64,000 bases of DNA from Bdellovibrionota bacterium (GTDB lineage Bacteria; Bdellovibrionota; UBA2428), in NCBI GenBank assembly GCA_035539375.1, contig DATLIP010000086.1, positions 16,848 through 80,847 on the forward strand, written 5' to 3'. Of the stretch, positions 54,399-57,079 are shown one piece after another (within the stretch, counting starts at the first letter, position 1; each line of letters starts with the position of its first letter). The notes beneath the pieces are model-generated. The model was not told where the DNA came from. It saw only the letters and a program-made list of their open reading frames with translations, and made no database searches. A program made the translations under genes and the position numbers.

Positions 54399-55019
54399 TT
54401 AGTAAAAACGTTGCAGGGCGACGACCTTGCCCAGCACTTGAAACTCCTCGTCGGGATCGACCAGGATGGGTTTCATCTTGGCGTTTTGAGGAATGAGCGC
54501 CACTGGGTCGCTTTTGCTCTTGGGGTATTGAATCGTTTTGACCGTGGCTTGATTCAGGTGTTGCGCCACAACCACATCGCCACTCTTGGTTTTCGCTTCG
54601 CGATCGACCACCAGGTAATCGCCTTCATAAATGCCGATGTCGATCATGCTTTCTCCGCGCACCTTGAGGGCGAAATAAGCGCCCGAGTTTTTGGGGTTGC
54701 GGATGGTTGCGGGACTCACCTGCAGAGTGCCCAGGGCGACTTCAAAGGCGTCTTGTAGGGCGCCTGCGGCCACTTCACCGACGATGGGGATGCTCATCGT
54801 CGGGCTCTGGCGATGCCCGCTGAGTCGAAGGCTGCGGCCTTTCTTTTCGAGGTAACCAAACTTTGTGAGCGCATGGATATGATCCTGAATGGTGCCCACC
54901 GCCGAGACGCCCAGATGTTTGGCCATCTCACGGTACGAGGGAATGCGCTGTTCTTGGTGCACGCAGGCTTCGATAAAGTTCAGCAGTTCCTTTTGTCGTT
55001 CACTTAAATTTGCGCCCAT
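54399..55019 (-). CDS. lexA: SOS repressor LexA
   Basis: N-terminal wHTH (LSERQKELLNFI...IPSYREMAKHLGVSAVGTIQDHIHAL), Ala-Gly cleavage site in GEVAAGAL, and the S24 peptidase motifs GESM and VVAQ...ATVKT. Confidence 0.92.
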   Translation of the reverse strand: MGANLSERQKELLNFIEACVHQEQRIPSYREMAKHLGVSAVGTIQDHIHALTKFGYLEKKGRSLRLSGHRQSPTMSIPIVGEVAAGALQDAFEVALGTLQVSPATIRNPKNSGAYFALKVRGESMIDIGIYEGDYLVVDREAKTKSGDVVVAQHLNQATVKTIQYPKSKSDPVALIPQNAKMKPILVDPDEEFQVLGKVVALQRFY

Positions 55020-55031
55020 ACACGTGTATGG
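55016..55031. promoter_or_regulatory. Palindromic operator candidate 1, overlapping the lexA -10 and start codon
   Basis: CCATACACGTGTATGG is a perfect 16-bp palindrome. In the lexA sense, TTGACA (55056-55051), a 17-nt spacer and TACCAT (55033-55028) follow, with 8 nt to the ATG. Confidence 0.45.
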
Positions 55032-55116
55032 TAATCCCTGGGCCTAAGATTGTCAAAATGAAGCGTTTTGATCGGTGCGGCATGGCTTTGGGTAAAAAAA
55101 TGTCGCCAAATCTTGA

Positions 55117-55136
55117 TACCATACGAACGTATGGTA
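55117..55136. promoter_or_regulatory. Palindromic operator candidate 2
   Basis: TACCATACGAACGTATGGTA is a perfect 20-bp palindrome. It shares CCATAC-N4-GTATGG and the 10-mer GTATGGTAAT with site 1. It fills the spacer between plus-strand TTGATA (55113-55118) and TAATTT (55135-55140). Confidence 0.45.
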
Positions 55137-55255
55137 ATTTGAATGAGGTAGACGTTTCGCGAGCAGTGGGCCGATGGCGTGGTGGACTCTTCTCTCCCCC
55201 CGACTGACGATCAGCCATCCCGTCCGGCCCACTCTTCTGTCGAAAGGCTCTCCCC

Positions 55256-55298
55256 AAAAAAAAACGGTAATGACCCCGAGGGGTCACTACCGTTTTTT
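55256..55298. terminator. Bidirectional rho-independent terminator
   Basis: An A9 run, the stem acggtaatgacccc / ggggtcactaccgt (13 of 14 pairs), then a T6 run. Confidence 0.75.
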
Positions 55299-55318
55299 CG
55301 TTTCTCGCAAAAGTGCGC

Positions 55319-55492
55319 TTAGTGCGACTGATGATCGGCAGGAGCCGCTTCAGCAGGAGCAGCAGCGTCGTCAGTTACGGGTGCAACTTCTTCGGTTGCA
55401 GGAGCTTCTGCGGGAACTTCCTCAGCTTGCTTGTTGCAAGCCATAGGAGCGAGAAGGGTAGCGACGATTGCGAGTCCAAAAATCTTTTTCAT
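55319..55492 (-). CDS. Small (57 aa) Ala/Pro/Glu-rich lipoprotein, absent from the ORF track
   Basis: Hand translation: SD aaggaggt, then MKKIFGLAIVATLLAPMACNKQAEEVPAEAPATEEVAPVTDDAAAPAEAAPADHQSH. The terminator follows. Confidence 0.6.
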   Translation of the reverse strand: MKKIFGLAIVATLLAPMACNKQAEEVPAEAPATEEVAPVTDDAAAPAEAAPADHQSH

Positions 55493-55630
55493 AGTTGTGA
55501 ATACCTCCTTGGGGTTACCTTTTTTGAGGATAGTCCAGGAATGACGGGCTGCATAGCGGGGGGGTGTGAATATATTTGATAGCTTAGGTCACTCTTTGTT
55601 GACGCTTGCTCGATGCAAAGGGGTGGAGTC

Positions 55631-57079
55631 TTAGGCTTGAACTGCCTTGAGGCGGATCAAGACTTCGAACTCGTTTTCCGAATTTCGGTGGGATTCAAAG
55701 GAGCCACCCATCTTTTCGATGATCTTTTCGCAGATCACCAGACCCAGTCCACTGCTCGTGGAGGTGCTCGAAGCCTGTTGTTGGGGTTCGTCGGAGCGCA
55801 GGAAACGGGACGAAGCTTTTTGGTCTAGGTAGCGAATCGTCACGTAGCGTTTGCCCGTGGGTTGTTGAACTTCTTCGATCGTGGCCTTGAGATTGCGGAT
55901 GGCGTTGTTGTGCTTGATGGTGTTCATCAGCAAGTTGCGAAAGACCATCGCGAGCTGCTTTTGGTCGGCGCCCACTTCGCGGATCTCTCCCATCTGCAAG
56001 TCGAAGCTGAGTTGAGGGTCAGCCCACTTGAGACATTCGGCGTAGGCCGATTTGATGATCTGTCCGACGTCCGTAGGTTCGATCTTGATCTTGTTCAGGC
56101 TCGAACGCGTGAACTGCAGAATGTCGTCGACAAGCTGTAAGCCCGAAAAGCAATTCAGCAGGGCACGCTTCCAGAGGGCTTCGAGTTCTTCGATGGTGGG
56201 TTTCTTATCGCGTTTGAGTTGCCAGATGTGGTGCAGGCTGATGATGGCCGAGAGAGGTTCCTTGAGGTCGTGCGCGGTTGCGGCCGAAACCACCGTCAAA
56301 AAGTTGCGAGATTCCTTGAGGCCCTTCTCCATACGGTTGAAGGAGTCGATCATCTCAAAAACTTCGGCGTCGAGGCCCGGCGAGACGGCGATCGGCCCCG
56401 GAAAGCGCTCGTTCTTGAGTTCGTTCTGGGCGCGGATGATCTTTTGCATCGGAACCACGACCTGTTGCTGCAGGTAACGGTTCTTGAGCAGCATGGTGGC
56501 GCCCACAATCATGATCGACAAAAAGCCAAAGGAGAGGATCAAGTCGCGTTGACGCTCAATTTCGGAGCTGAGGTACTTGAGGGTGAGCGAAAGGTATTCC
56601 GAAAGGTCGGCCGTTTTGGAGATGTGCGATTCGCTCAAGAGACGCAGCTGGTTTTTGAGCGCCCATGAGGTGCCGCTCTCTCGGGTCAAAAGCTCTTCGC
56701 CCAGGCGCAGTTGCACACCGAGGCGTCGCTTTTCGGACTCTACGTACTTGATGATGAGGTGGTGCAGGATGTGATCGTCGATCAGCTGCCCGTCAAAGCC
56801 CTGGAGCTGGGTGTTGGCCCGGTCGCTCAGCTCGCGCAACTCCCGCATACCGTATTCCGAAGGAGCGATCTCGATGTTTTCGATCACGGACGCCAGGTCT
56901 TGGTCGATCTTGGCCACACCCGAAGTCACGCTGAGCGAAACGTTGAGGGCATCGATCGTGGTTTTGAGCTCAGAAATGCGTGGGCCGACGCCCACGAAGT
57001 AAAATACGATGGGCGCCAGTAGCGTGCCAAGTTTGATAAAATCAAAAATATGCAGCTTGGACTGGAGCGAGGATCTCAT
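55631..57079 (-). CDS. Sensor histidine kinase (2 TM, HAMP-like linker, HisKA, HATPase_c)
   Basis: H-box AATAHDLKEPLS. N box and G box ...NLLMNTIKHN...GLGLVICEKIIEKMGG. Confidence 0.9.
   Translation of the reverse strand: MRSSLQSKLHIFDFIKLGTLLAPIVFYFVGVGPRISELKTTIDALNVSLSVTSGVAKIDQDLASVIENIEIAPSEYGMRELRELSDRANTQLQGFDGQLIDDHILHHLIIKYVESEKRRLGVQLRLGEELLTRESGTSWALKNQLRLLSESHISKTADLSEYLSLTLKYLSSEIERQRDLILSFGFLSIMIVGATMLLKNRYLQQQVVVPMQKIIRAQNELKNERFPGPIAVSPGLDAEVFEMIDSFNRMEKGLKESRNFLTVVSAATAHDLKEPLSAIISLHHIWQLKRDKKPTIEELEALWKRALLNCFSGLQLVDDILQFTRSSLNKIKIEPTDVGQIIKSAYAECLKWADPQLSFDLQMGEIREVGADQKQLAMVFRNLLMNTIKHNNAIRNLKATIEEVQQPTGKRYVTIRYLDQKASSRFLRSDEPQQQASSTSTSSGLGLVICEKIIEKMGGSFESHRNSENEFEVLIRLKAVQA

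Follow-up and report, generated by a model that had tools for sequence, protein, structure and literature searches.

The stretch of DNA analysed here (the window, 64,000 nucleotides) belongs to contig C86 of a Bdellovibrionota genome, G000, which comprises 2.89 Mb in 116 contigs, is 79% complete and has a G+C content of 56.6%. On its minus strand, at positions 54399-55019, lies an open reading frame of 206 amino acids with a winged-HTH domain and an S24 peptidase domain, identified as LexA by a profile search (TIGR00498, 144 bits against a cut-off of 111). Its recognition helix, AVGTIQD, begins at residue 40 and is followed by the VAAG cleavage site (from residue 83), GESM (with the catalytic Ser, from residue 122) and TVKT (with the Lys, from residue 159). 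When aligned to LexA chains from the PDB, the Ala-Gly cleavage site and the Ser/Lys dyad coincide with those of E. coli LexA, and VAAG, GESM and VKT are all conserved; in its winged HTH, cleavage site and dyad the protein is a canonical LexA.

Two copies of a dyad, CCATAC-N4-GTATGG, accompany the gene. Box 1, GCCCATACACGTGTATGGTA (55014-55033), is the proposed LexA operator lying over the -10 element, the probable transcription start and the lexA start codon, and a perfect palindrome of 16 bp, CCATACACGTGTATGG (55016-55031), forms its core. Box 2, TACCATACGAACGTATGGTA (55117-55136, core 55119-55134), lies 103 bp from box 1 and is a proposed operator of full consensus, composed as TACCATAC-GAAC-GTATGGTA. 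Neither box is assigned to a strand, and the two have the 10-mer GTATGGTAAT in common. The original prediction described site 1 as a perfect palindrome overlapping both the lexA ATG and the -10 hexamer, with an exact 10-mer recurring at site 2, and both statements hold in sequence and coordinates; its description of site 2 as a perfect 20-bp palindrome is correct for the arms (8+8) but not for the centre, since GAAC is not self-complementary.

The lexA ATG (55019-55017) falls inside the GTATGG arm of box 1. It is assigned as the start codon because reading the frame upstream reveals no further in-frame start before a stop, and because the next in-frame start, a GTG at codon 20, lies within helix 1. 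The promoter proposed in the original prediction was also recovered, with TTGACA (55051-55056, minus strand) as the -35 hexamer, a 17-nt spacer, and, 8 nt ahead of the ATG, TACCAT (55028-55033, minus strand) as the -10 hexamer, which the upstream arm of box 1 forms; a promoter scan scored this promoter at 10 of 12 matches. Scans of genome and metagenome contigs seeded with this LexA found the closest relative at 59% identity, and the other contigs that carry an identical LexA are 100% identical across the region, so that population variation is absent here.

All exact copies of the motif in the genome lie at SOS promoters

CCATAC-N4-GTATGG occurs six times in the 2.89-Mb genome, against an expectation of 0.018 calculated from the plus-strand counts of the two half-sites (209 for CCATAC and 245 for GTATGG). 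At other spacings from 0 to 12 the half-sites are never paired anywhere in the genome, except once at spacing 9, and the only site with one mismatch is found within a coding region. Scores from a position weight matrix are cleanly bimodal, with the six sites at 28.8-32.5 bits and the next best in the genome at 14.5; exact matches were the starting point for both the matrix and the survey, which therefore underestimate degenerate sites and the full size of the regulon.

The genome scan that the original prediction had called for placed every exact copy at an SOS promoter: two at lexA, and one each at umuDC, recA, dinB and a radical-SAM gene of the PA0069 family. The neighbouring genes were identified by profile scores of 160 bits for UmuD, 404 for UmuC, 544 for RecA, 492 for DinB and 473 for the PA0069 radical-SAM protein, and together they constitute the classical LexA core regulon. 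The motif is a dyad of ~16-20 bp over-represented at the promoters of DNA-damage genes, as is characteristic of an SOS box.

The position of the box relative to the promoter takes several forms. At umuD-umuC the layout is that of lexA (TGGACA, 17 nt, TACCAT, 8 nt, ATG), with the ATG inside the box, and at dinB the box ends 12 nt before the ATG. The radical-SAM gene has TTGAAA, then the box as a 16-nt spacer, then TATACT, with the ATG ~13 nt further on. At recA the box is directly flanked by TTGATC and TATGGT and lies ~250 nt upstream of the gene (C41:21215-21464), a roughly conserved distance that is 170-190 nt in five relatives (G004, G008, G011, G012 and G014). The recA leader has a Shine-Dalgarno (SD) site of its own, and the length of the interval suggests that recA has either a second promoter or an extended, structured leader. 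The same box is common to a divergent gene (C41:21533-22681) whose ATG lies 52 nt from it and whose product, of 382 aa, has an N-terminus resembling a signal sequence and no match in Pfam or NCBIfam; this may be a lineage-specific SOS gene.

The motif recurs across the phylum and tracks the LexA recognition helix

In a sample of 201 genomes (200 drawn from the phylum, plus G000), 59 contained exact copies of CCATAC-N4-GTATGG, while the reversed control pattern gave single matches in about ten. Among motif-bearing genomes of families f4, f10, f13, f19 and f26, 33 of 38 had a site no more than 400 bp upstream of lexA, compared with none of seven in families f7, f9 and f12. A site at the lexA promoter, as expected of an autoregulated gene, is seen both in these 33 genomes and in the window, where box 1 covers the -10 element and the ATG. 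The 67 distinct sites collected have the consensus TACCATACAWWTGTATGGTA, with an A/T-rich, variable spacer; the CCAT/ATGG core is present in all 67, which were chosen as exact core matches.

Within the family to which G000 belongs, the motif was found upstream of recA in five genera, that of G000 included, upstream of dinB in four genomes, and upstream of operons combining an imuA-like gene with lexA, of imuB-like genes, and of two types of radical-SAM gene, PA0069 and TIGR03916 (annotated as "DNA modification/repair"; 564 bits). Genes of the TIGR03916 type are known LexA targets in other phyla; the one in G006 (L170, 564 bits) begins at the ATG of a box, and none was seen beside a box in G000. 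The sampled genomes of f4, f10 and f19 carry just one or two exact sites each and none at recA, and their predicted regulons look minimal, consisting of lexA and an imu cassette. The imuA- and imuB-like genes of f1 and f10 gave no profile match and are connected to f13 proteins by weak BLAST links. With the motif at lexA or other SOS genes in six families, and with the placement of the sites in G000, the suggestion that the two palindromes are LexA-box candidates is well supported by comparative sequence analysis.

Boxes were also found in the same family upstream of Y1-transposase and HNH-endonuclease genes. A repeated gene family with weak Pfam matches to Y1_Tnp (IS200-like; 25.9 and 20.5 bits) has a box over its promoter or start, in the arrangement TTGACA, 17 nt, TATGGT (L046, L050, L052, L054, L058, L060 and L184-L187 in G014; L049 and L051 in G011; L166 in G002). 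At least ten such copies, many of them at contig ends, are present in G014, where they inflate the site count to 19. These genes may encode damage-inducible transposases, as judged from the position of the box. In four genomes of the family (G014, G011, G013 and G002), genes for HNH endonucleases of 320-350 aa (HNH_4, HNH_5 and HNH in Pfam, all weak matches) have a box within 13 nt of the start (L048, L053, L059, L178 and L181).

Presence of the motif tracks the recognition helix of the accompanying LexA. In an alignment of DNA-binding domains, in which the E. coli row was taken from the PDB alignment, box-associated LexA proteins have AVG(T/S)xQD where E. coli has SPNAAEE, the one exception being an f10 protein with AVGSAQT. 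Sampled LexA proteins from genomes without the box, among them two divergent ones from the family of G000 (genera g2 and g10), have SLG, SFG, SVG or SAS at the helix position. The LexA proteins of G001 and G010 (L037 and L038; same family, genus g2), of ~34% identity, have the helix RSLGHVQ and no CCATAC box; further upstream at these two loci lies TACTAGAAATATACTA-CTACTAGTAATATACTA, a repeated TACTA-type element that resembles the LexA motif of Xanthomonadales.

A predicted -10 element and the start codon inside the box

At the loci compared in relatives, the ATG of GTATGG is the first codon of 18 open reading frames that are 100 codons or longer. They encode LexA (f1, in two genera, f4 and f10), ImuA-like proteins (f1, f10 and f13), an ImuB-like protein (f13) and UmuD. 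In 17 of the 18, TACCAT stands 8 nt before the ATG, its TA preceding the upstream arm of the box, and in most of them TTGnnA lies another 16-18 nt upstream. The order of -35, 16-18 nt, TACCAT, 8 nt and ATG, with TACCAT and ATG both part of the box, is found in five families, at lexA, umuD and imuA/imuB-like genes.

For the genes of G000 itself, lexA and umuD (TACCAT, 8 nt, ATG) both have a -10 element within the 5-9 nt before the start codon that mark leaderless genes, with no room for an SD site, and SD sites are used elsewhere in the organism (AGGAGG at recA and AAGGAGGT at the neighbouring lipoprotein gene). The gap of 8 nt from the -10 element to the A of the ATG at lexA is at the long end of the usual promoter geometry. 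The original prediction of a lexA mRNA that is leaderless, or nearly so, receives strong comparative support from the layout common to the 18 box-started reading frames, and we consider a leaderless transcript likely. Conservation of this layout argues for a design in which both the -10 element and the ATG come from the operator and the mRNA would start at or next to the AUG.

Box 2 and the interval beyond it

Two genomes of f10 (L061 and L062) offer a parallel to the arrangement of the boxes in the window. In both, lexA starts at the ATG of one box, and 102-104 bp upstream of it another box provides the start of an imuA-like gene (MVIQP...) running in the opposite direction, with an imuB-like and then a dnaE2-like gene behind it; the two boxes of the window, 103 bp apart, are laid out in the same way. 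In the window, the plus-strand ATG of box 2 opens an ORF of only three codons (55131-55142; ATG GTA ATT TGA, M-V-I-stop), and the ImuA-like genes of relatives start with MVI, MVL or MVV at the same position of the box. "ATG GTA" is imposed at this position by the consensus on both strands, and since protein similarity is also lacking downstream, the argument that box 2 is a relic is weakened: in tblastn searches, ImuA-like proteins gave noise only against 55031-55330, and neither ImuA-like nor ImuB-like proteins matched the G000 genome, which at 79% completeness does not prove that imuABC is absent from the organism. G000 has umuDC rather than imu genes.

Reading of the sequence around box 2 suggests a plus-strand promoter (55113-55140), which can be drawn in two ways. 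One consists of TTGATA, the 16-nt box core as spacer and TAATTT, both hexamers directly abutting the box, a layout with the box as spacer that recA and the radical-SAM gene also show. The second takes TG-a-TACCAT (55114-55122) as an extended -10 element, with the ATG of the box 8 nt downstream. The candidate was sub-threshold in the promoter scan and was not reported by it.

Beyond the box, on the plus strand, a long imperfect hairpin of ~110 nt (55145-55255) contains no ORF and matches no family; the fold of 55145-55300 has a minimum free energy of -71.3 kcal/mol (z = -5.98). The hairpin interval is unique in the genome, with no second copy, and no Rfam family was found in 54900-55650. It is followed by a bidirectional intrinsic terminator (55256-55298; A9, a 14-bp stem and T6), which ends the minus-strand lipoprotein gene and would end any plus-strand transcript from box 2. 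The hairpin is a candidate for a small RNA under LexA control, or alternatively for debris left after loss of the imu cassette.

Each part of the reading of box 2 carries its own weight. That LexA binds it appears highly probable; the chances that it gates a plus-strand transcript, whether or not this is a functional sRNA, are about even; and that it is a functionless relic is possible, though we doubt it. Rather than being a second lexA operator, box 2 probably belongs, as operator, to a divergent promoter that has lost its genes.

A candidate LexA operator and its alternatives

From the sequence of the motif, its enrichment, gene context and conservation, and its co-variation with the recognition helix, we infer that the two palindromes are very probably LexA binding sites and, with high confidence, that CCATAC-N4-GTATGG is a LexA operator. 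We propose that TACCATAC-N4-GTATGGTA, with the consensus TACCATACAWWTGTATGGTA, serves as the LexA operator of a large clade of Bdellovibrionota that includes G000. A LexA dimer would bind the dyad, and as box 1 carries both the -10 element (TACCAT, in the upstream arm) and the start codon (GTATGG, in the downstream arm), bound LexA would exclude RNA polymerase. Upon DNA damage, RecA-stimulated self-cleavage of LexA at the Ala-Gly bond would lift the repression, and the lexA transcript would start at or within 1-2 nt of the AUG, to be translated without a Shine-Dalgarno site. The same operator would control umuDC, in an identical leaderless layout, as well as dinB, recA and the PA0069 radical-SAM gene, where at recA and the radical-SAM gene the box would form the 16-nt spacer between the -35 and -10 elements. 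Box 2 would be another LexA site, pointing away from lexA; most likely it is the operator belonging to a divergent imuA-imuB-dnaE2 promoter of the kind known from another family; with the cassette missing here, the 3-codon ORF and a structured, terminated interval of 150 nt would be what is left. We hold this explanation as a whole, with its clade-wide operator, leaderless layout and outward-facing box 2, to be highly likely.

It could be argued that another dimeric regulator, for example a damage co-regulator of the XRE/DdiA type, binds the palindrome, with lexA merely one of its targets. LexA-independent damage regulators are indeed described for related groups (PMC12288472). Yet lexA itself carries the site in six families, the LexA recognition helix co-varies with the presence of the site, sampled genomes without a LexA match have no site, and the regulon is the classical LexA core, which makes a different binder very improbable. 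It is more improbable still that the six copies are a short mobile repeat, MITE- or REP-like, found near these genes by chance. The many copies at contig ends in the relative G014, adjoining the repeated Y1-transposase gene, would fit such an origin, but in G000 only 16-20 bp are common to the sites, all six are at SOS promoters, and the site has the same position at orthologous genes of other genera. A MITE or repeat origin was rejected for G000 on the grounds that the flanks of the six sites are unrelated.

With LexA retained as the preferred binder, the arrangement at the locus could still be read differently in two respects. The lexA promoter could lie further upstream, for instance near box 2, in which case box 1 would be a roadblock within the leader and translation would proceed without a canonical SD; the slightly long distance of 8 nt between the -10 element and the ATG, and an AGGGA 15-19 nt upstream of the ATG, could be taken in this sense. 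This seems unlikely to us given the sigma-70 promoter (10 of 12 matches) that ends 8 nt before the ATG, the conservation of the -35/TACCAT/8 nt/ATG order at 18 reading frames in five families, the strong terminator upstream, and the sequence around box 2, in which no convincing minus-strand promoter could be read. Box 2, for its part, could be a true second lexA operator, cooperating with box 1 at a distance of roughly ten helical turns. E. coli lexA carries two boxes, the 103-bp spacing is close to in phase, and box 2 is of full consensus with nothing recognisable to regulate on its far side. We nevertheless regard this as improbable, as the box at the same spacing in L061 and L062 is clearly that of the divergent imuA, a single box is usual at lexA in the clade, and the plus strand at box 2 offers an abutting -35 (TTGATA) and an extended -10 element to which nothing on the lexA strand is comparable.

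The reading of box 1 as the LexA operator of a leaderless lexA, and of box 2 as an outward-facing operator, can be extended to an all-in-one SOS element, in which a single 20-bp LexA dyad would serve as operator, -10 element and start codon of leaderless damage-response genes. Being portable, it would have been picked up by Y1-transposase and HNH genes, rendering them damage-inducible, and the orphan box 2 would drive a LexA-controlled structured sRNA. We offer this extension tentatively and think it rather less likely to be right than wrong.

Relation to known LexA boxes

The SOS box of E. coli and other Gammaproteobacteria is CTGT-N8-ACAG, with the consensus TACTGTATATATATACAGTA. The motif described here resembles it in being a 20-bp dyad with outer tetranucleotides 8 bp apart (CCAT-N8-ATGG), and agrees with it at 7 of 10 positions per half-site (TAC..TA.A.), so that the E. 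coli-like TAC...GTA frame pointed out in the original prediction goes further than had been suggested. The two systems are also alike in the placement of the box over or next to the -10 element, in an autoregulated lexA, in a regulon that includes recA, umuDC and dinB, and in the wHTH-plus-S24 architecture of the regulator. They differ in the core, which is CCAT and not CTGT (CCATAC where E. coli has CTGTAT), and in the recognition helix (AVGTIQD where E. coli has SPNAAEE). With CCAT/ATGG in all 67 exact-core sites, the motif is, as had been predicted, not the CTGT/ACAG box. A further difference is that here the operator itself would supply the -10 element and the start codon of leaderless genes. 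The Gram-positive Cheo box, GAAC-N4-GTTC, is likewise a palindrome with inner tetranucleotides 4 bp apart (here ATAC-N4-GTAT), but differs from the motif at two of its four core positions. That GAAC forms the spacer of box 2 is coincidental and peculiar to that site.

Within the phylum, the LexA box of B. bacteriovorus is TTAC-N3-GTAA (Campoy et al. 2005, as quoted in PMC8565304). The motif was predicted to be distinct from this box as well, which agrees with the absence of any match to TTAC-N3-GTAA in the window and with the presence of this published box at lexA, as TTACACTGTAA, in family f7 (Bdellovibrio-like, with genomes of 3.4-4.0 Mb). B. bacteriovorus and the clade belong to the same phylum, and the regulons of f4 and f10 are equally minimal (lexA and a cassette of the imuA/imuB/dnaE2 type, with no recA), whereas the sequence and spacing of the two boxes are unrelated, and recA, dinB and umuDC are under the box in the organism studied here, which differs from what is reported for B. 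bacteriovorus. Other lineage-specific LexA motifs, that of Balneolaeota among them, are similarly located upstream of lexA and control translesion polymerases, recA and a radical-SAM gene. Their sequences are unrelated to the present one, and they have been validated by EMSA, whereas the box described here is known from sequence; the Balneolaeota motif differs further in being a direct repeat.

About 17 LexA motifs were known by 2021, with B. bacteriovorus the only representative of Bdellovibrionota (PMC8565304). In the literature searched, we found no description of TACCATAC-N4-GTATGGTA, and nothing relevant to this motif on LexA in Bdellovibrionota. What appears to be new is an undescribed, probable clade-wide operator of a canonical LexA that would double as -10 element and start codon. 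Among regulators, LexA is the usual example of repeated evolutionary change in the binding motif, and a motif that differs from the E. coli box at three positions per half-site, with the helix changing alongside, is a useful case for the study of drift in LexA specificity. The candidate motif covers at least six families of Bdellovibrionota and makes their SOS regulons directly readable from MAGs; within the clade these regulons range in size from the full core seen here (recA, dinB and umuDC) to lexA and an imu cassette in other families. A -10 element and start codon embedded in an operator would also represent a compact regulatory design that is directly testable.

The lexA promoters of f7 and its neighbours show a different organisation. 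In f7 (L189-L192 and L042) they read TTGAC-TTACAC-N5-TTACAC-TGTAA, with TTAC-N3-GTAA sitting inside a direct repeat, and in neighbouring families TTACGC-N5-TTACGC or TACGG-N6-TACGG is found at lexA (L033 and L036 in f8 and f9, and L035 in f9). The f7 direct repeat resembles the LexA motif of Balneolaeota, the direct repeat TTACACATATTTTWTACATA (PMC7739468), and the LexA proteins of f7 and neighbouring lineages may recognise direct repeats.
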